From assembly GCA_963762465.1 (NCBI GenBank), contig CAVXKS010000011.1, positions 370,356-434,355 of the forward strand: 64,000 bases of DNA, in the 5' to 3' direction. Shown here piece by piece: positions 1,899-13,917 of this stretch. Origin of the DNA: an uncultured Acidobacteriaceae bacterium. GTDB taxonomy: Bacteria; Acidobacteriota; Terriglobia; Terriglobales; Acidobacteriaceae. The translations under genes were made by a program, and so were the position numbers. How positions within the stretch are numbered: the stretch's first letter is position 1; each line of letters opens with the position of its first letter. A model generated the notes under the pieces. It ran no database searches, was not told the DNA's origin, and worked only from the letters and a program-made list of their open reading frames with translations.

Positions 1899-2681
1899 AT
1901 GCCGCTGCTCTCTGTCGCGATCATCACGCTCAACGAGGAGGCCAACCTCGCTCGCACTCTCGAGAGTGTCTCGTGGGCCGACGAGATCATCGTCGTCGAC
2001 TCCGGCTCGACCGACCGAACCGCCGAAATCGCCCGTAACTTCAACGCACGGGTAATCGAGCACCTCTGGACTGGCTTCGCCGCTCAGAAGAACTTCGCGC
2101 TCTCCCAGTGCATGGGTGACTGGATTCTCTCGCTCGACGCGGACGAGGAACTCTCCACCGAACTCCAGTTCCAGATGCAATCGCTGCTGATGACGAAGCC
2201 GACCGCCGACGCCTTCTTCCTCAAGCGCCGCAACCTCTTCCTCGGCCGGTGGATCAAGCACGGTGGCTTCTACCCGGATCCCAAGCTTCGCCTCTTCCGC
2301 CGCTCCGCCGCCAATTTCGTCCAGACGCCGCAGTTTGAAGAGCGCCCGGTTCACGAGACCATCGTCTTCAACGGCATCTCCCGCACGCTCGACTACGACC
2401 TCATCCACCACGCTTATCCGACGCTCTCGACCTACATCGAGCACATGGACCGCTACAGCTCGCTAGGGGCCGAACTGCTGATTGCGAAAGGCCGCACCAG
2501 CCGCTCCGCACTCAGCTTCGCCTTCAACGTCTGGTTGATCCCGCAGCTCACCTTCATCTGGAACTACATCTTCCGGCTCGGTTTCCTCGACGGCCGCGAG
2601 GGCCTGCTGCTGCACCTCTACCACGCCATCTACACCAGCTGGAAGTACGCAAAGGCTTGGGAGCGAGCAAGGAAGAGTTAG
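1899..2681 (+). CDS. glycosyltransferase family 2 (WaaE/KdtX-like)
   Basis: LSVAIITLNEE, VVDSGSTD, LSLDADE, GFLDGREG motifs. Confidence 0.9.
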   Translation: MPLLSVAIITLNEEANLARTLESVSWADEIIVVDSGSTDRTAEIARNFNARVIEHLWTGFAAQKNFALSQCMGDWILSLDADEELSTELQFQMQSLLMTKPTADAFFLKRRNLFLGRWIKHGGFYPDPKLRLFRRSAANFVQTPQFEERPVHETIVFNGISRTLDYDLIHHAYPTLSTYIEHMDRYSSLGAELLIAKGRTSRSALSFAFNVWLIPQLTFIWNYIFRLGFLDGREGLLLHLYHAIYTSWKYAKAWERARKS

Positions 2682-2760
2682 GAACTTAGGAGCCAGGGTC
2701 AGGACGGACTCCACCCTTTCAACCTAACTCGCTAACTTCCTCACTCCCTAGCTCCTCCCT
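2678..2760. repeat. convergent 8-mer tandem repeats between converging genes
   Basis: TTAGGAAC/TTAGGAGC after the GT2 stop, and CTAACTCG CTAACTTC CTCACTCC CTAGCTCC after the SDR stop on the other strand. Confidence 0.65.
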
Positions 2761-3500
2761 TACCAAGGAATCATCTCCGCCCCATGAAAATACCCGCCGG
2801 TGGGCCCATCGTCCGGCAGCGTCGCCAGTTCCACAATGGTCTTCGCTCCATCCTCCACGGTCAGCGGAGCCGCGCTCCCGCCCATATCCGTCTTCGCCCA
2901 CCCAGGATGCGCCGAGTTCACCTTGATCTTCGTCCCGCGCAGCTCGTGCGCCAGATGAATCGTCAGCATATTCAGCGCCGCCTTGGACGAGTTATACGCA
3001 AACAGCTTCGTCGTATACGTCGGCGATCCCTTCGTCCCCTGCAGCGTCACCGATCCCAGAATGCTCGACACATTCACGATCCGCCCCGCCTTGGCCCTCT
3101 TCAGCGCCGGCAGCAGCGCCTTCGTCAGCGCAAACGGTGCCAGCACATTCGTCTCATAAGTCGAGCGAACATCCTCGACCTTGATCTCGCTGGTAATGTT
3201 GCTCGTCCAGCTCTTCTCCACCATCTGACCGGCGTTGTTTACCAGCACATCCAGCACGCCGCCGAACTCCTCGTCGATCAGCCGCGCCACCGCGTCGATG
3301 TCCGCCTGTGAGTTCACGTCCAGCTTCACCGCGATAACGTCCAGACCTTCGCCACGCAGCTTCTCCGCAGCGGCCTTGCCCTTGTCCACGTCGCGCGCGC
3401 CCAGTAGCACCTTGTAACCCATTTTGCCGAGCTGCCGCGCCGTCTCGAACCCCAGCCCCTTGTTCGCTCCGCTGATCAGCACCACGCCCATGTCATCCAT
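2760..3500 (-). CDS. SDR family oxidoreductase (carbonyl reductase-like)
   Basis: SGANKGLG, LVNNAG, YNSSKAA, VNSAHPGWAKTDMGG. Confidence 0.92.
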   Translation of the reverse strand: MDDMGVVLISGANKGLGFETARQLGKMGYKVLLGARDVDKGKAAAEKLRGEGLDVIAVKLDVNSQADIDAVARLIDEEFGGVLDVLVNNAGQMVEKSWTSNITSEIKVEDVRSTYETNVLAPFALTKALLPALKRAKAGRIVNVSSILGSVTLQGTKGSPTYTTKLFAYNSSKAALNMLTIHLAHELRGTKIKVNSAHPGWAKTDMGGSAAPLTVEDGAKTIVELATLPDDGPTGGYFHGAEMIPW

Positions 3501-3505
3501 CCGCC

Positions 3506-3943
3506 TTATCCCTCGCTCCCGTCATTTGCGCCCGATCGGTGTACCAGCGCCTGAAACTGTTTTGCATACCGCTCCGGCATGTCACGTTTCTTCATATCGC
3601 GCCCAACCACCAGGTGAACCGTTTCTCCCTCGCAGAGCAACTGCTCGTCCGTGGCGCGCACCACAGCATACCTGAAGCGCACAATCGATCCGCGAACACC
3701 CGCCAGCGTCGTCCGCACGATCAGCTCGTCGTCATACCGCGCCGGAGCCTTGTACCGCGCCGTGGCCTCCACCACCGCAATCATCGCGTTCTCTTCCTTC
3801 TCCATCGTGCGGTAGTCCATCCCCATCTGCCGGATGAACTCCACCCTGCCCACCTCGAACCACACCAGATAGTTCGCGTGATACACCACGCCCATCTGGT
3901 CGGTCTCCGCGTAGCGCACGCGCACCCGGGTCTCTGCCGTCAT
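3506..3943 (-). CDS. acyl-CoA thioesterase, YbgC/FadM (4HBT) family
   Basis: RVRYAETDQMGVVYHANYLVWFEVGR. ATG at 3943 overlaps the stop of the M23 gene. Confidence 0.9.
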   Translation of the reverse strand: MTAETRVRVRYAETDQMGVVYHANYLVWFEVGRVEFIRQMGMDYRTMEKEENAMIAVVEATARYKAPARYDDELIVRTTLAGVRGSIVRFRYAVVRATDEQLLCEGETVHLVVGRDMKKRDMPERYAKQFQALVHRSGANDGSEG

Positions 3944-6786: not shown

Positions 6787-7239
6787 TTAGTGGGTGTCCT
6801 TGGAGTCTAACGGAACCAGCACCACCGTAGACTTGACGCTTGCTGGCGAGCCCTCCCAGATCGGATTGCCCCCATTAAGAATCGCCATGTTCGATTCCCT
6901 GCCGAGAAACACCACCACATAGGCCTTTGGCCCCGAGGAAACGAAAGGAGTCTGCGAAGAGAGCGTTCCGATAATTCGCCCGATCCACGAAGCGCTCGTG
7001 GTCAGGCTCGCGAAATGCGCCCGGCCATACGCATCCGATTCCATGTCGACAATATGATCCTGCGAATCCGCCGAGTAGTTACGATAAATCTCGCGAACCA
7101 GCGCGCCCTTAATCGGAGCTCCGGAAGGATCAACAACGTCCAGCGTCCAATCAGGTGCCGTCATCGTGCCGTAGGGAATTGAGCCCACAACCAGGAAAAT
7201 GCCCAGCGCCACTATCGTGAGTAATCGAGCCATATTCAC
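6787..7239 (-). CDS. hypothetical secreted/membrane-anchored protein (lower GC)
   Basis: N-terminal hydrophobic helix; VVDPSGAPIKGALV resembles a prealbumin-like/carboxypeptidase-regulatory start. Confidence 0.55.
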   Translation of the reverse strand: MNMARLLTIVALGIFLVVGSIPYGTMTAPDWTLDVVDPSGAPIKGALVREIYRNYSADSQDHIVDMESDAYGRAHFASLTTSASWIGRIIGTLSSQTPFVSSGPKAYVVVFLGRESNMAILNGGNPIWEGSPASVKSTVVLVPLDSKDTH

Positions 7240-7263
7240 GCCTGGGTCACCCAGTTTTATCCT

Positions 7264-7542
7264 TTAATCGATTGTTCTCTTTCTACTGCGCCCAAAAGCC
7301 CATGCACTCACGCAACACACTACAACGCCACTCACAATACTCCAACGCATCCACGGCAACATGCCAAAATCCATTGCCGTACACAAATCGAGCGGCACAC
7401 CGGAAGCATTAGCTTGCACTGTACTGCAGGAATGCAGCCCATGCTCCGATCGGCATTCGTATGTCTCTCCAGCGCCGAACGAGCCTGGCACCACAATCAG
7501 AAGAACCGCGACAAAGAAGCTCCAGACCGCGAACCGCCTCAC
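7264..7542 (-). CDS. hypothetical small membrane protein (lower GC)
   Basis: 92 aa, two hydrophobic segments around a Cys-containing loop. Start overlaps the MCC stop. Confidence 0.5.
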   Translation of the reverse strand: MRRFAVWSFFVAVLLIVVPGSFGAGETYECRSEHGLHSCSTVQANASGVPLDLCTAMDFGMLPWMRWSIVSGVVVCCVSAWAFGRSRKRTID

Positions 7543-9263
7543 GTCTGAATCACCCCCGGATTAAACCTCGCGACCTCCGGATTCAGCGCACACGCCTCGA
7601 GCGCCGTCATCAGCACCTCGCGCGTCTCCGCCGGGTCAATGATCGCATCCACCCACAGCCGCGCCGCGCCGTACCGCGGGTCCGCCTGCGCATCATACGT
7701 CGCCTTGATCTCGTCGTAGAGCGCCTTCTTCTCATCATCGCCCAAATGCTTCCCTCCGCGCTCCATCTGCTTCACCCGAACCTCAACAAGAGTATTCGCC
7801 GCGCTCGCTCCGCTCATCACCGCATACCGCGCCGTCGGCCACGCGAAGACAAACCGCGGATCGTACGCCTTGCCGCACATCGCGTAGTGCCCCGCGCCAA
7901 AGCTCCCACCGATGATGACCGTAATCTTCGGCACCACGCTCGTGCTTACCGCGCTCACCATCTTCGCGCCTGCGCGAATGATTCCCGACCACTCCGCATC
8001 CTTTCCCACCATGAACCCATTCACATCATGCAGAAACACCAGCGGCACAAGCTGCTGATTGCAGTCCATGATGAACCGCGCCGCCTTCTGCGCACTCTCG
8101 GTGTAGATCACGCCGCCAAACTCCGTGCGCTTCTCGCCCTGCTGCGGCCCCATCGCCACCGTCATCTGCTGATGCATCTTCTGGTTCGCGACAATCCCCA
8201 CCGCGCGCCCGCCAATCCGCGCATAGCCACACACCACCGTTCGCCCAAACTCCGCCTTGTACTCATCGAACTCGCTGCGGTCCACCAGCCGCGCAATCAC
8301 ATCGCGAACGTCATACGCATTCGTCGCCGCCTTCGCCGGATCAGGATCCATCAGCCCGTACAGATCCTGCTGCGCATACAGCGGCTTATCCCGCTCTGCA
8401 TCAAACTCCACCCGCGAAAACGGCGCACTCGTCCTCTCGCCAATCTTCCCCACCAAACTCCTCAACCTCTCAATACACGCCTCATCATCCTTCTCCTTGA
8501 AATCAACCGTCCCCGACACCTCCGCATGCATCGCAGCGCCGCCCAGCTCCTCCGCCGGCGTCTTCTGCCCGATCGCCGCCTGCACCAGCGCCGGCCCCGC
8601 CAAAAATAATCCAGATCCCTCCGTCATCAGCACCGTGTCTGTCATAACCGGCAGGTACGCTCCGCCCGCCACACACATCCCCATGATGGCCGTAATCTGC
8701 GGCACGCCCAGCGAGCTCATCACCGCGTTGTTGCGAAACACCCGCCCGAAGTCGTCCTGGTCCGGAAACACATCCTCCTGCAGCGGCAGAAACACCCCTG
8801 ACGAGTCCACCAGGTACAGCGTTGGAATCCGATTCTCCAGCGCAATTGTCTGCGCCCGAATCACCTTCTTCGCGGTCATCGGGAAGAACGCGCCCGCCTT
8901 CACCGTCGCGTCATTCGCCACCACAAGGCACAGCTTGCCAGCTACACGCCCCAGCCCGGCCACGGCTCCCGCGCCCGGAGCCCCACCCCACTCGCCGTAC
9001 ATCCCATACGCCGCCCACAACCCGAGCTCGGTCCAGTCAGAGCCCTTATCCAGCAGCAACCCCAGCCGTTCCCGCGCGGTCAGCCGCCCCTTGGCATGCT
9101 GGGCCTCTACCGCCTTCGCGCCGCCACCCTCGCGAATTCGCGCCTCCTCGGCCCGAACCTCCTCGAGCAGCCGAAGCGTCGCCTCCCGATTCCTCTCAAA
9201 CTTTGCCGCCGTCGTGTCCAGCCGCGACTCAAGCCGGTTCCCTGCCTTCGCGCCTCCAGCCAT
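7539..9263 (-). CDS. acyl-CoA carboxylase carboxyltransferase (methylcrotonyl-CoA carboxylase beta-like)
   Basis: GRLTARERL, ANDATVKAG, DSSGVFLP, GMCVAGGAY, GGSFGAGHYAMCG. Confidence 0.92.
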   Translation of the reverse strand: MAGGAKAGNRLESRLDTTAAKFERNREATLRLLEEVRAEEARIREGGGAKAVEAQHAKGRLTARERLGLLLDKGSDWTELGLWAAYGMYGEWGGAPGAGAVAGLGRVAGKLCLVVANDATVKAGAFFPMTAKKVIRAQTIALENRIPTLYLVDSSGVFLPLQEDVFPDQDDFGRVFRNNAVMSSLGVPQITAIMGMCVAGGAYLPVMTDTVLMTEGSGLFLAGPALVQAAIGQKTPAEELGGAAMHAEVSGTVDFKEKDDEACIERLRSLVGKIGERTSAPFSRVEFDAERDKPLYAQQDLYGLMDPDPAKAATNAYDVRDVIARLVDRSEFDEYKAEFGRTVVCGYARIGGRAVGIVANQKMHQQMTVAMGPQQGEKRTEFGGVIYTESAQKAARFIMDCNQQLVPLVFLHDVNGFMVGKDAEWSGIIRAGAKMVSAVSTSVVPKITVIIGGSFGAGHYAMCGKAYDPRFVFAWPTARYAVMSGASAANTLVEVRVKQMERGGKHLGDDEKKALYDEIKATYDAQADPRYGAARLWVDAIIDPAETREVLMTALEACALNPEVARFNPGVIQT

Positions 9264-9343
9264 GCATCCCCGATCCACAAACACTAGAAAACTCGCGAAG
9301 GATAGCATGCCAATGTCATACTGTCCCGCGCGGGAGATGCATC

Positions 9344-9691
9344 ATGGCCACACTCACCAAAACGACAACCTGGCCCCAGACCGAAGCCACCGTCGAGTCC
9401 TCCACCCAGCACCACTGCGACTTTGCCAGTGCCGGCGGCCACGTCGGCCAGGAGTACTCCATCATCTTCCGGTATCAGGTCAACGGCCGCCCCTACACCG
9501 GCGAGTTCGAATGCAGCCGGCCCTGGGAGGTCGGCTCCAGATTCTGCATCAGCTACGACCCCCACGACCCCGAAACCAACACCATGTGCGATCACAAAGG
9601 CGAGCGCTGGGTCTACTACATCCTGGCCGTCGTCGCCGTGCTCGCCTTCATCGCCTACTTCTGGATTCGCCACGAGCGCATCGGGTATTAG
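9344..9691 (+). CDS. DUF3592-like membrane-anchored protein (paralog 1)
   Basis: WPQTEATV...YSIIFRYQVNGRPYTG...ISYDPHDP plus C-terminal TM helix; GGGAG SD. Confidence 0.7.
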   Translation: MATLTKTTTWPQTEATVESSTQHHCDFASAGGHVGQEYSIIFRYQVNGRPYTGEFECSRPWEVGSRFCISYDPHDPETNTMCDHKGERWVYYILAVVAVLAFIAYFWIRHERIGY

Positions 9692-9697
9692 ACGGAA

Positions 9698-10570
9698 TCA
9701 GAACGGCACTCTGACCGTAATCACCGTCGCGTGGTTGTAGGTCCTGAAATGCGTCAGCGCGATCTGCTCACCCGCGCCGAACGTCAGCCCCAACCGCCCC
9801 GGTATCCCCCTCGCATCATGCGTCAGCGGAATTCTGCCGATAACCATCCCCGGTGTCGCAAACGTCTGCGCCTTCCTGTCATTCGACCCGCCTTTGAAGA
9901 ACGACGAGTTGAACTCGGTTTCAGGCCACAACCACCTGCCGACACCCGTCTTCATCGCTCGAAACTGAATCGCGTTGTTCCATGCGATCGTGTGCCCCAA
10001 CCCCTTCGCATTCGTCACCGGCAACGACCCGCCCGCAGTCGACTCCAGAGCCAGCCGCCCAAAGCCCTTCCCCACTGCCAGCGTCGGGGTCACTATCGCG
10101 CAGCAGCTTCCGTTGCCGTTCTTCCCGGTTGGTACCGTCCCTGCAAAGAAGAACGTCACAATCGCATTCCCGGCCTCCTCGTTCCGTGAGAACAGGCGCT
10201 CCTTCATCACGAACGACAGATCCCCAAACCCATCCTTAGCTCCGTTCCCGTGATCGACGAACGCCGGCAGATTCACCAGGATCTCGGTGTGCCGCTCCGG
10301 AATCAGCTCCAGCCCTTTGCCGTTGTCATAGGTCCACTGGTACTGCCCTTTGGTGTTGTACTGGTGCACGAAATCCGCGCGAAACTCCTGCTCCAGACGC
10401 GGCGTGACCAGCACCAGCGGCGTAATCCAGTGCGGCTGCGCGGCTTGCGTCGCCGATGCCCTCGCCTGCCACCTTCCCCAGAACGAATCTGGCTGCTGAC
10501 CCTTAGCGATCAGTGCGCCCGTCAATATCACACACAACACCAGCCACCAACCAGCTCTTCTCTTCATCAT
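9698..10570 (-). CDS. putative outer-membrane beta-barrel (transporter/porin-like)
   Basis: Signal peptide, alternating hydrophobic strands, C-terminal ITVRVPF ending in Phe. Confidence 0.6.
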   Translation of the reverse strand: MMKRRAGWWLVLCVILTGALIAKGQQPDSFWGRWQARASATQAAQPHWITPLVLVTPRLEQEFRADFVHQYNTKGQYQWTYDNGKGLELIPERHTEILVNLPAFVDHGNGAKDGFGDLSFVMKERLFSRNEEAGNAIVTFFFAGTVPTGKNGNGSCCAIVTPTLAVGKGFGRLALESTAGGSLPVTNAKGLGHTIAWNNAIQFRAMKTGVGRWLWPETEFNSSFFKGGSNDRKAQTFATPGMVIGRIPLTHDARGIPGRLGLTFGAGEQIALTHFRTYNHATVITVRVPF

Positions 10571-10573
10571 CTG

Positions 10574-10620
10574 CGTATCGACTCAATACGATTCTATGTG
10601 TCGATTTTTTGAATATGCAA
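10574..10620 (-). promoter_or_regulatory. sigma70-like promoter of the barrel gene overlapped by palindromic operator(s)
   Basis: Minus strand TTGCAT-18nt-TAGAAT. 29-bp dyad ATCGACTCAAT-N7-TATGTGTCGAT (10577-10605) and 17-bp dyad CGTATCGACTCAATACG (10574-10590). Confidence 0.6.
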
Positions 10621-10712
10621 ACTGCCGCACCGCCCAGCGCCGCCCCAACTCACCTCTCGCTTCTCACATCTCGCATCTGCGCGCCCCGCGTATACTTCTC
10701 TCCCGAGGTCCC

Positions 10713-11126
10713 ATGCCCAGCGCCGACATCCTCCTTAAGCCCCGCGAAGCCGCAGCCGCCCTTGGCGTCAGCTATCCCACGCTCAAGCAATGGATCCTCG
10801 CCGGCACCATCCGCACGATCAAGACGCCCGGCGGCCACCACCGCATCCCGGAGTCCTCACTCAAGCCGCTGATGAAGTCCCGTCCCGCCGGCAATCCCAA
10901 AACCTCGCGCGATCGCTTCCGCACCGTCTCCGGCCGCAATCAGCTCGTCGGCCGCATCCTCGACGTCAAAATCTCCGGGCTGCTCGCCAAAGTCGTCCTC
11001 GAAATCGCCGACCAACGCATTACCTCGATCATCACCTCCGACGCCGCTCGCGAGATGCAGCTCCGCAAAGGCCAGACGGCCGCCGCCCTCATCAAATCCA
11101 CAGAGGTTATGATCGTCCGCGTGTAG
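10713..11126 (+). CDS. MerR/excisionase-like HTH plus TOBE domain regulator (molybdate-responsive, ModE-like)
   Basis: LLKPREAAAALGVSYPTLKQWI..G.I...KTPGGHHRIP, then SGRNQLVG...ITSIITSDAAREMQL..G..A.ALIKSTEV (TOBE/Mop). Confidence 0.85.
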   Translation: MPSADILLKPREAAAALGVSYPTLKQWILAGTIRTIKTPGGHHRIPESSLKPLMKSRPAGNPKTSRDRFRTVSGRNQLVGRILDVKISGLLAKVVLEIADQRITSIITSDAAREMQLRKGQTAAALIKSTEVMIVRV

Positions 11127-11135
11127 GTAGGCCCC

Positions 11136-11480
11136 ATGCGCTACAGCATCGCGAGAAGATGGAAGCGAGCCAAAGCAACCGTCGAACTCTGCGAGCGCCG
11201 CCATCAGCACCGCGACGGCACACCGATCAGCCCGCGCGACCGCTTCCGCTACGCGATCACCATCAGCTATCCCGTCGACGGCGACCTCTATCTCACCGAT
11301 GTCGTCAGCAACAAGCCGCTCAGAAAAGGCTCGTTCGTCACGGTCCGGTACGATCCACTCGACCCACGCCTCAACAGCCTCAACCACCCGCGCCGCGAGC
11401 GCAAAGCCTTCGCGATCGCGCTGGCCGTCGTCGCTCCGATTGTTCTGATCCTGCTTGTGATTGCGGTCTTTGGGCTGTAG
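11136..11480 (+). CDS. DUF3592-like membrane-anchored protein (paralog 2)
   Basis: WKRAKATV...YAITISYPVDGDLY...VTVRYDPLDP plus C-terminal TM. Confidence 0.65.
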   Translation: MRYSIARRWKRAKATVELCERRHQHRDGTPISPRDRFRYAITISYPVDGDLYLTDVVSNKPLRKGSFVTVRYDPLDPRLNSLNHPRRERKAFAIALAVVAPIVLILLVIAVFGL

Positions 11481-12566: not shown

Positions 12567-13199
12567 ATGACGCTTCGGCTCGCCCCCACAGACGCGCTTC
12601 TGGTCATCGACATGCAATGCGACTTCCTCCCCGGCGGCTCTTTAGCTGTCCCCGACGGGGACAAGATCATCCCCAGCATCAACCGCATCGCGACCAAATT
12701 CCACCACGTGATCCTCACTCAGGACTGGCACCCCCTCGGCCACATCTCCTTTGCCAGCTCCCACCCCGGCAAGCAGCCCTTCACCGATACCGTCCAAACC
12801 CCGTACGGAACCCAGACCCTCTGGCCCGACCACTGCGTCCAGGGAACCCCGGGCGCCGACATCGACCCCCGCGTCCAAATCCCCCACGGCGAGCTTATCC
12901 TCCGCAAAGGCTTCCGCCGCGACATCGACAGCTACTCGGCTTTTCTCGAGGATGATCACCAGACACCTACCGGCCTCGCCGGCTACCTTCGCGAGCGCAA
13001 CCTGCACCGCCTCTTTCTCTGCGGCCTGGCCTACGACTTCTGCGTCGGCTTCTCCGCGATCGACGGCGCCCGCCTCGGCTTCACCTGCCTCGTCCTCGAA
13101 GACCTCTCCCGCGCCGTAGCCCTGCCCGGCACTGTCGAAAAAGCCAACGCCTGCTTTGCGGAGTGGGACGTGAAACGAATCGCCAGTCACAATATCTAA
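12567..13199 (+). CDS. pncA: nicotinamidase/pyrazinamidase
   Basis: VIDMQCDFLPGGSLAV, QDWHP, WPDHCVQGT, GLAYDFCV. Confidence 0.93.
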   Translation: MTLRLAPTDALLVIDMQCDFLPGGSLAVPDGDKIIPSINRIATKFHHVILTQDWHPLGHISFASSHPGKQPFTDTVQTPYGTQTLWPDHCVQGTPGADIDPRVQIPHGELILRKGFRRDIDSYSAFLEDDHQTPTGLAGYLRERNLHRLFLCGLAYDFCVGFSAIDGARLGFTCLVLEDLSRAVALPGTVEKANACFAEWDVKRIASHNI

Positions 13200-13207
13200 G
13201 GGGAGAC

Positions 13208-13543
13208 GTGGAAACAAAGGGCCAGTGGAGGACAGCAACCGCGACCATCTACTCTGCAGATTGGATTCCTCCGGAGGGAAGGCAGCGAGGTTGCTGGAAG
13301 GTCTCGTATAGTTACTGGGTCGACGGTGAGGTCTATAGCGGTTTCATGACCGACTTCGCTACGGATAGCGAGGTGGCATATCAGAAAGACGACACATTTC
13401 CAATCGAATACTCATTGCAGAAACCCGAAGAAAGCCGAGTTCCAGGCTTAGTCTCCTACTGGCAAAAGGTACGACTCCCATTCGCGATCGGAATTGCCCT
13501 GGGGCTGGTTGCAATAGTCCTCTACTTGGTCAGGCACCTCTGA
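13208..13543 (+). CDS. DUF3592-like membrane-anchored protein (paralog 3, lower GC)
   Basis: WRTATATI...VSYSYWVDGEVYSG...FPIEYS..KP plus TM. GTG start after GGAG. Confidence 0.65.
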   Translation: METKGQWRTATATIYSADWIPPEGRQRGCWKVSYSYWVDGEVYSGFMTDFATDSEVAYQKDDTFPIEYSLQKPEESRVPGLVSYWQKVRLPFAIGIALGLVAIVLYLVRHL

Positions 13544-13917
13544 TGGAGGTAAACCCGCTCAGCACACGTGACGCCTGGCCCGAAGCCATAGCCACCGTAA
13601 CGTCCTGCAAATACGAGTTCGGCGCCGGCCGCGCGCTCGCCTTCGGCCTGCCCTCCGCACGCCACTTCCGCATCACCTACAACTACTGGGCGCGCAACGC
13701 CGACAACGTCGACGAGCTCCACACCGCTGAACTCACCTCAGAAAAAGCAATGCACGTCGGCACACTCTTCCCCATCCGCTTTAACCCCGACGCTGCCCAC
13801 GAAACCACCCACTTCTCCGCAGCGCCCGAGCCCACCCGCAACCCACTCCTCGTCATTGCCATCGTCGGCTCCATCGTCCTCTCGCTCGCCTGGCTCCTGA
13901 TCCTCCGCGGCTGCTGA
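13543..13917 (+). CDS. DUF3592-like membrane-anchored protein (paralog 4)
   Basis: WPEAIATV...FRITYNYW...FPIRFNPDAA plus TM. TGATG overlap with paralog 3. Confidence 0.65.
   Translation: MEVNPLSTRDAWPEAIATVTSCKYEFGAGRALAFGLPSARHFRITYNYWARNADNVDELHTAELTSEKAMHVGTLFPIRFNPDAAHETTHFSAAPEPTRNPLLVIAIVGSIVLSLAWLLILRGC

Follow-up and report, generated by a model that had tools for sequence, protein, structure and literature searches.

Can a gene pair with no molybdate transporter genes in its vicinity belong to the molybdate regulon, and can one of its products be the protein through which the oxyanion passes the outer membrane? This question is raised by a locus in a 64,000-nucleotide stretch of DNA, hereafter the window, from the genome of an uncultured Acidobacteriaceae bacterium (4.63 Mb, 61% G+C; GenBank assembly GCA_963762465.1, contig CAVXKS010000011.1, positions 370,356 to 434,355). 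An open reading frame (ORF) for a 137-aa regulator matching the HTH_17 and TOBE domain models (ATG at 10713, to 11126, plus strand) is divergent from an ORF for a 290-aa beta-barrel protein (9698-10570, minus strand); the two start codons lie 142 bp apart, and each gene is single-copy in the genome. The initial annotation, made from the sequence alone, had proposed that a molybdenum sensor of a type other than ModE represses a dedicated oxyanion porin here through a ModE-like dyad operator.

Molybdenum is required by nitrate reductase, xanthine-dehydrogenase-type enzymes and nitrogenase, and is poorly available in acidic soils, which are dominated by Acidobacteriaceae. A review of metal sensing names only ModE as a molybdate sensor (PMC11672702), and the one route across the outer membrane that we found cited is a secreted ModA that docks on IcmP in Pseudomonas (PMC11734730). 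Our literature search found no characterised HTH_17-TOBE regulator, no molybdate-specific outer-membrane channel and no characterised member of either protein family, an absence that is no proof.

Sequence comparison supports the first part of the proposal, namely that control over an outer-membrane barrel of the molybdate regulon lies with a molybdenum sensor other than ModE, even though modABC is encoded elsewhere. Membership of the barrel in this regulon is argued from its linkage to the regulator, from operons that join the barrel to modABC, from regulator-modABC operons that carry the same promoter boxes, and from loci in which the regulator or the barrel has been replaced by another protein. 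The ModE-like operator was not borne out; an array of direct repeats takes its place. The comparisons cover 80 barrel loci from other genomes (78 of them for the count of mod genes), a family-wide sample of 151 genomes, and a further 20 regulator loci that are not beside a barrel gene.

A BldC-like helix-turn-helix joined to a single Mop domain

Domain searches and the AlphaFold2 (AF2) model divide the regulator into a BldC-like winged helix-turn-helix (HTH; residues about 7-53), a flexible linker (56-74) and a single Mop/TOBE domain (72-135), the two domains being modelled confidently and the linker with low confidence. The N-terminus matches HTH_17 (PF12728, E 1e-9), MerR and excisionase models only, the excisionase match coming from NCBIfam. 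The C-terminal part matches TOBE (PF03459, E 1e-12) and the NCBIfam Mop model TIGR00638 (58.8 bits, cut-off 55), in agreement with the MerR/Xis-type HTH fused to TOBE that had been read from the sequence. It is the only TOBE domain encoded in the genome, the organism's own ModC being without one.

The C-terminal domain belongs with the molbindins, as it scores above the TIGR00638 cut-off and retains the oxyanion-binding motifs. Residues 71-135 align to MopII of Clostridium pasteurianum (1GUG, E 3.4e-10), to ModG and to Tub, a tungstate storage protein of Eubacterium limosum (9BEB). Over 64 aligned columns, identity is 45% with MopII and 42% with Tub, and Foldseek gives a target-normalised template modelling (TM) score of 0.77-0.79 against MopII. 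Like the regulator, MopII and Tub have a single Mop domain of about 65 residues; they form hexamers that bind oxyanions at the subunit interfaces, but differ in being storage proteins without a DNA-binding domain. Thirty regulators drawn from all genomic contexts share the segments SGRNQL, ITSIIT and K(S/A)TEVM without exception. In the regulator studied here, where the last of them reads KSTEVM, these segments align to MopII and ModG; SxRNQL and K(S/A)T correspond to the molybdate ligands of ModE, which are S126 and R128 of its SARN segment together with K183 (PMC11672702).

ModE, the molybdate-responsive repressor of modABC in E. coli and Azotobacter (MopA/MopB in Rhodobacter), thus shares with the regulator a Mop/TOBE domain with SxRN and K-S/A-T, as well as a genomic tie to modABC and, putatively, the same feedback logic. 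The differences are more numerous. ModE has a LysR-like winged helix, whereas the regulator carries an excisionase/BldC-like HTH_17, and neither Pfam nor NCBIfam places a ModE-type winged HTH at its N-terminus; ModE has two Mop domains, whereas the regulator has one, a single TOBE stretch (72-135 of 137 aa) leaving no tandem di-Mop arrangement; and the match to the ModE model NF007957 (22 bits, cut-off 369) is confined to the Mop part. The ModE operator is a dyad, whereas the candidate operator described below is a direct-repeat array, and the putative targets here include outer-membrane proteins. As judged from sequence, the Mop motifs are the only ModE features that this system retains.

A second possible affiliation is with TaoR, a tungstate/molybdate regulator that we compare here as characterised in a citing paper. 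In that description, PBP_like is the sensor domain type of TaoR, TaoR and TaoR-like regulators combine HTH_17 with PBP_like, with or without TOBE, and TaoR regulates Mo/W transport genes (PMC11980592). The coupling of HTH_17 to a W/Mo oxyanion sensor is common to both; however, Pfam finds HTH_17 and no PBP_like domain (PF12727) in the regulator, which places it outside the TaoR family, and the likeness lies in the HTH type only.

The nearest solved relative of the HTH is Streptomyces BldC (6AMA/6AMK). The sequence match to 6AMA has E 1e-6 to 5e-6 at 35-39% identity, the target-normalised TM score is 0.79-0.82 with a root-mean-square deviation of 1.3-3.4 A (Foldseek), and BldC residues W31, G44, G45, H46 and R48 have their counterparts in W27, G40, G41, H42 and R44, so that the recognition-helix Trp and the His of the wing are kept. 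BldC itself has no sensor domain, and the regulator, at 32.9 bits, falls below the cut-off of 77 of the BldC-family model NF033787. Taken together, these features describe a putative cytoplasmic molybdate/tungstate sensor of an uncharacterised type, in which a flexible linker connects the HTH with one Mop domain.

Direct repeats at the barrel promoter

The initial annotation had placed the barrel promoter at TTGCAT-18-TAGAAT and had seen it covered by two dyads. Both hexamers and the 18-nt spacer are present on the minus strand, and the -10 element TAGAAT (10591-10596) recurs in relatives as TA(G/A)AAT. The -35-like TTGCAT (10615-10620) fares less well: it is weak, with 3/6 matches to TTGACA, it is not kept in relatives, where an A-rich box sequence occupies that region, and a promoter scan called no sigma-70-type site here.

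The dyads are likewise present, the longer one as ATCGACTCAAT-N7-TATGTGTCGAT over 29 bp (10577-10605; 9-nt arms, 89% complementary) and the shorter as CGTAT-N7-ATACG over 17 bp (10574-10590). ModE operators, found upstream of modA, are dyads whose TATAT half-sites have flanking CG. Across 63 orthologous sites, however, complementarity between the arms of the longer dyad is 3.48/9 within a site and 3.33/9 between different sites, which indicates that dyad symmetry is not selected, and the palindromic look is due to TCGA cores in this lineage. The ModE-like dyad was therefore rejected as operator on two grounds, the loss of symmetry among the 63 sites and a genome scan with ATCGAC-N17-GTCGAT and looser forms, ATCGAC-N17-GTCGAT itself having just two occurrences in the 4.63-Mb genome.

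What is conserved instead is a series of direct repeats. The consensus of the orthologous upstream regions, a..cg...AAAATCGt.A.....AaTCGTATAgAATCGaa..ATG, contains up to four boxes, each an A-rich tract followed by TCG(TATA), spaced 10, 13 and 10 bp, whose CG core is kept in 28, 46, 53 and 38 of 63 sites for boxes 0, 1, 2 and 3, respectively. The -10 element of the relatives lies between boxes 2 and 3. At the locus studied here, three direct ATCG boxes form the candidate operator (10578-10609, minus strand), with TCG cores at 10602-10604, 10589-10591 and 10579-10581 (spacing 13 and 10 bp), and the arms of the 29-bp dyad are boxes 1 and 3. At the barrel promoter, this array extends over the spacer and the -10 into the start region. 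A start codon in frame lies 6-9 nt downstream of the -10 in 41/62 loci, and exactly 6 nt downstream in 27, so the barrel mRNA of most orthologues is predicted to be leaderless; in the genome studied here, the distance from the -10 to the ATG is 20 nt.

A 32-column position weight matrix (PWM) was derived from 65 orthologous promoters and scored on both strands of the genome (9.3 Mb). The site at the barrel promoter reaches 35.6 bits, the runner-up 18.0, and no other site scores 20 bits or more, so that the motif is specific and does not represent a general promoter type. BldC binds AATTxxxxC direct repeats as head-to-tail oligomers through its winged HTH alone (PMC5859096); a direct-repeat operator thus fits a BldC/Xis-type HTH far better than would the dyad of a ModE or MerR protein. 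The A/T tracts and C-G core of the boxes resemble AATTxxxxC, although the spacing is 9 in BldC and 10/13 here.

The position of the boxes bears on the sign of regulation. Boxes 2 and 3 cover both the -10 and the start site, which puts the array in the classic position of a repressor, and repression by the loaded form is also the logic of ModE, which suits a regulon for import (PMC11672702). The regulator might, on the contrary, activate the barrel promoter from the boxes at -35/-45, its active state being either the loaded form or, when molybdenum is limiting, the apo form. A conserved -10 without a -35 consensus, together with boxes 0 and 1 at about -35 to -45, would suit an activator, and BldC is reported to act as both activator and repressor (PMC5859096, PMC6428758). 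Given where boxes 2 and 3 lie, we regard activation as improbable and favour repression by the loaded regulator.

Gene neighbourhoods link the barrel to molybdate uptake

The regulator is directly divergent from the barrel gene in 45/80 barrel loci. In the family-wide sample, it occurs in 106 of the 151 genomes and the barrel in 53, adjacent pairs being either divergent or co-directional. The pair was also confirmed in a cultivated relative, Acidisarcina polymorpha. In 10/78 barrel loci, modA and modB or modBC come after the barrel gene in the same orientation, as checked by model scores of 207-216 bits for TIGR01256 and 246 bits for TIGR02141; seven of these ten loci also carry a divergent regulator and the box motif. 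The gene neighbourhoods, whose examination the initial annotation had suggested, therefore tie the barrel to molybdate uptake in relatives.

Of the 20 regulators that are not beside a barrel gene, eleven head reg-modA-modB-modC operons, eight adjoin TonB-dependent-type receptors, and one has other neighbours. In 7 of the 11 operons, the best PWM match within 12 kb lies no more than 60 nt upstream of the operon, in the layout TCGTATAGAATCG-N4-6-ATG. One reg-modA locus (L103) has its best box-like match at about 5777 (plus strand), between the regulator stop codon and modA and not 5' of the regulator, which suggests an internal promoter or operator.

The receptors adjoining eight of the regulators are proteins of 1065-1132 aa with CarboxypepD_reg, Plug and OMP_b-brl_4 domains, two of the eight loci (L094 and L109) holding truncated or fragmented ORFs. 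At L094:3867-5688 (minus strand), the receptor appears to be broken up into a number of ORFs, among them one of 322 aa and one of 307 aa, owing perhaps to a sequencing artefact or because the gene is a pseudogene. An exchange of one outer-membrane protein for the other is seen in a genome of the same genus (G117), where the flanking synteny is identical and a 1075-aa receptor (CarboxypepD_reg and OMP_b-brl_4) fills the slot of the barrel (L093, G117:C10:831000-844000, at 6891-10118); the box site is kept there at 27 bits, in the opposite orientation.

The regulator, too, can be exchanged. In four barrel loci (L011, L012, L025 and L034), the HTH-Mop protein is replaced by a regulator that combines an XRE HTH with PBP_like (PF12727, E 3e-48). 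The one in L034 is encoded at 2467-3600 (minus strand), divergent from a barrel-modA pair. All four loci lack the ATCG box array and have other repeated words of AATG type upstream, which are probably the operator of the XRE-HTH regulator. A search of 16 barrel loci without the box motif against Rfam gave tRNAs only, and thus no molybdenum cofactor (Moco) riboswitch.

The window contains no modABC, as annotated; the genome's own copy is on contig C8. Neither a box site nor the dyad for which the initial annotation had suggested a scan is present upstream of this modA, the best PWM score at its promoter being -8.3 bits. The organism does use molybdenum, as judged from MoaA (345 bits) and at least three Moco enzymes of the xanthine dehydrogenase family. 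In this modA (C8:167020-167780), the signal peptide (beginning MRRALLALLALTLLAPQAS) and the mature ModA domain lie in different reading frames, with the shift near a C-run at about 167065-167075; the gene is either a frameshifted pseudogene or affected by an assembly error, and if the frameshift is real, the ModABC system of this organism would be without its binding protein.

The lack of the motif at modABC is one of two facts that could be taken to mean that the pairing of regulator and barrel is a lineage-specific accident of gene order. The other is that the TOBE superfamily binds several ligands, so that the regulator might respond to sulfate, or to a sugar as in MalK-type proteins, and the boxes would be nothing but a strong leaderless promoter. 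A good deal has to be set aside for this to hold: the domain scores above the cut-off of the Mop-specific model and has retained its oxyanion residues, the linkage is found again in several arrangements and with modABC, the motif is unique in the genome, and an independent candidate Mo/W sensor type occurs in the same position. We consider such an accident very improbable and proceed from a barrel that belongs to the molybdate regulon.

The barrel protein

By sequence, the 290-aa protein has no match in Pfam, NCBIfam or the PDB, and its more than 3600 homologues of 60-90% identity are nearly all unnamed. It begins with a signal-like hydrophobic segment and ends in ...RVPF, with a C-terminal Phe. 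The AF2 model, based on a 64-sequence alignment, has a mean predicted local distance difference test (pLDDT) score of 94.7 and a predicted TM score (pTM) of 0.86, and comprises about 12 long strands after a conserved helix (residues 30-43) and a plug-like segment of high conservation, QPHWxTPLVxxTPRL. According to this high-confidence model, the protein is a 12-stranded outer-membrane barrel; signal peptide, amphipathic strands that close into a barrel and C-terminal aromatic residue all conform to the general pattern of such proteins, and the fold expected by the initial annotation is thus upheld.

Significant Foldseek matches are outer-membrane barrels without exception. The best are FapF (5O65/5O68) and the COG4313 channel Pput2725 (4RL8), at TM 0.54-0.68 and probability 1.00 (0.54-0.60 for 4RL8 alone), whereas general porins align poorly (0.28-0.37). 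FapF and Pput2725 share with the barrel its 12 strands, similar size and N-terminal helix; they differ in sequence (11-14% identity) and setting, as no fap operon is present here and the neighbouring genes point to molybdate uptake rather than to aromatic degradation or amyloid export. The Pfam family PF13557 is matched by 4/64 diverse relatives of the barrel (best E 5.7e-6) and not by the barrel itself.

A further difference from FapF and Pput2725 is a vicinal Cys-Cys motif specific to the orthogroup of the barrel. It comprises C156 and C157 (window 10099-10104, minus strand), within KNGNGSCCAIVT (residues 150-161). Among close homologues, the motif KN(G/A)NGSCCA(V/I)VT is kept in 120/120, the two cysteines usually being the only ones of the mature protein, and in the diverse family alignment CC occurs in 10/64, of which at least 7 are the query and the close homologues added to it. 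Strand counting puts the pair at the end of extracellular loop 3, where it could form a vicinal disulfide or a ligand site.

Proposed mechanism and the evidence against it

In the mechanism that we propose, molybdate or tungstate would bind the Mop domain of the regulator, and the oxyanion, held at Mop-Mop interfaces as in the molbindins, would drive or stabilise oligomers. Such an oligomer would line up several BldC-like HTHs for cooperative binding to the direct ATCG(TATA) boxes at their 10/13/10-bp spacing. The boxes cover the -10 and the transcription start, where the loaded form would act as repressor, so that the uptake genes would be shut off once molybdenum is sufficient. In the genome studied here, the divergent barrel gene would be the only target, and the barrel would admit molybdate across the outer membrane for ModA; in the Acidobacteriaceae, the regulator would fill the role of ModE. 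We assign a probability of about 0.6 to this mechanism as a whole, in which the regulator, as a Mo/W-loaded oligomer bound to the repeats, would keep an outer-membrane uptake channel repressed.

Several observations weigh against it. The modABC operon of the organism has no box site, and co-regulation with the barrel is thus not visible in its own genome. Within the HTH, the base-reading Arg30 of BldC corresponds to an invariant Gln, which adjoins an invariant Lys, and the interface residue Leu43 to a Pro; given these substitutions, the DNA specificity of the regulator appears to differ from that of BldC, and perhaps the geometry as well. Mop domains do not distinguish molybdenum from tungsten. 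Because the boxes share sequence with a conserved -10 and a leaderless start, part of their conservation may reflect promoter function rather than operator function. Distant homologues of the barrel are not beside mod genes: one at 33% identity (P0312) is found in a tandem pair without them, and another (P0261) lies on short contigs. The molybdenum link accordingly holds for the orthogroup of the barrel and not for the whole superfamily.

The remaining points concern the substrate. The nearest folds are FapF and the COG4313 channel, the latter thought to import hydrophobic molecules, and in a rough estimate based on residue alternation, the lumen-facing residues are of mixed charge (5 K/R and 10 D/E), with R64, K123, R125 and R287, but also D66, E96, E217 and E219, conserved and no evident anion filter or clear basic ladder. 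Sensor and regulon could therefore be as proposed while the barrel conducts something other than molybdate, such as another nutrient needed when molybdenum is scarce, a molybdenum-metallophore complex, or a small hydrophobic or amphipathic molecule. Besides the fold, the PF13557 matches among distant relatives and the estimated lumen, this would suit the presence in the same slot of a TonB-dependent-type receptor, as such receptors usually import chelates, and the invariant Cys-Cys, which hints at a specific ligand site. Yet the barrel is co-operonic in several lineages with ModA, a binder of the free oxyanion, and the examined loci showed no neighbouring genes for metallophore biosynthesis, although such genes were not searched for systematically. 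A substrate other than molybdate is, in our judgement, unlikely, and the barrel remains a good candidate for a dedicated molybdate entry route, as judged from its genomic associations.

Such an arrangement would have a parallel in PhoE and OprP, anion-selective porins that are induced by phosphate starvation. In both cases, an outer-membrane channel would come under the regulon of the scarce anion that it presumably lets in. PhoE and OprP differ in being 16-stranded trimers under an unrelated regulator; the barrel does not have their fold and shows no clear basic constriction in the rough estimate above.

If the mechanism is correct, ModE would be joined by a second molybdate sensor, different in structure, for which a candidate operator is defined, candidate outer-membrane entry proteins would be named, and the question of how molybdate crosses the outer membrane would become directly testable. 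Annotation would also be corrected for thousands of "hypothetical" barrels and "molybdopterin-binding" regulators. More tentatively, HTH_17-Mop proteins could represent a widespread, unrecognised class of Mo/W sensors whose oxyanion-dependent oligomers form a head-to-tail filament on the repeats, and which control a regulated outer-membrane step of molybdenum acquisition in which a Cys-Cys channel and a TonB-dependent-type receptor are interchangeable. A filament of this kind would be a sensor mechanism not described for any metal sensor, and would matter especially in acidic, molybdate-poor soils.

Other features of the locus

On the side of the regulator, a -10 element, TATACT (10691-10696, plus strand), is followed by GAGG (10705-10708) and the ATG at 10713, and an (A)GTATA(C/G) element beside the regulator start is kept in many loci in the alignment of upstream regions. 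Just upstream of this -10 and 5' of the regulator promoter, repeat finding identified a 14-nt tandem direct repeat, CTCACCTCTCGCTT / CTCACATCTCGCAT (10649-10676, plus strand). In close relatives, the equivalent position is taken by other short tandem repeats, for example AATAGTG/AACAGTG in two loci (L007 and L008).

Four small paralogous proteins of 114-126 aa, each with one C-terminal membrane helix, are encoded nearby on the plus strand (9345-9691, 11136-11480, 13163-13543 and 13543-13917), one of them with a weak match to DUF3592 (23 bits, cut-off 25.3). Two of these genes flank the regulator-barrel pair, and both are kept in the nearest relatives.

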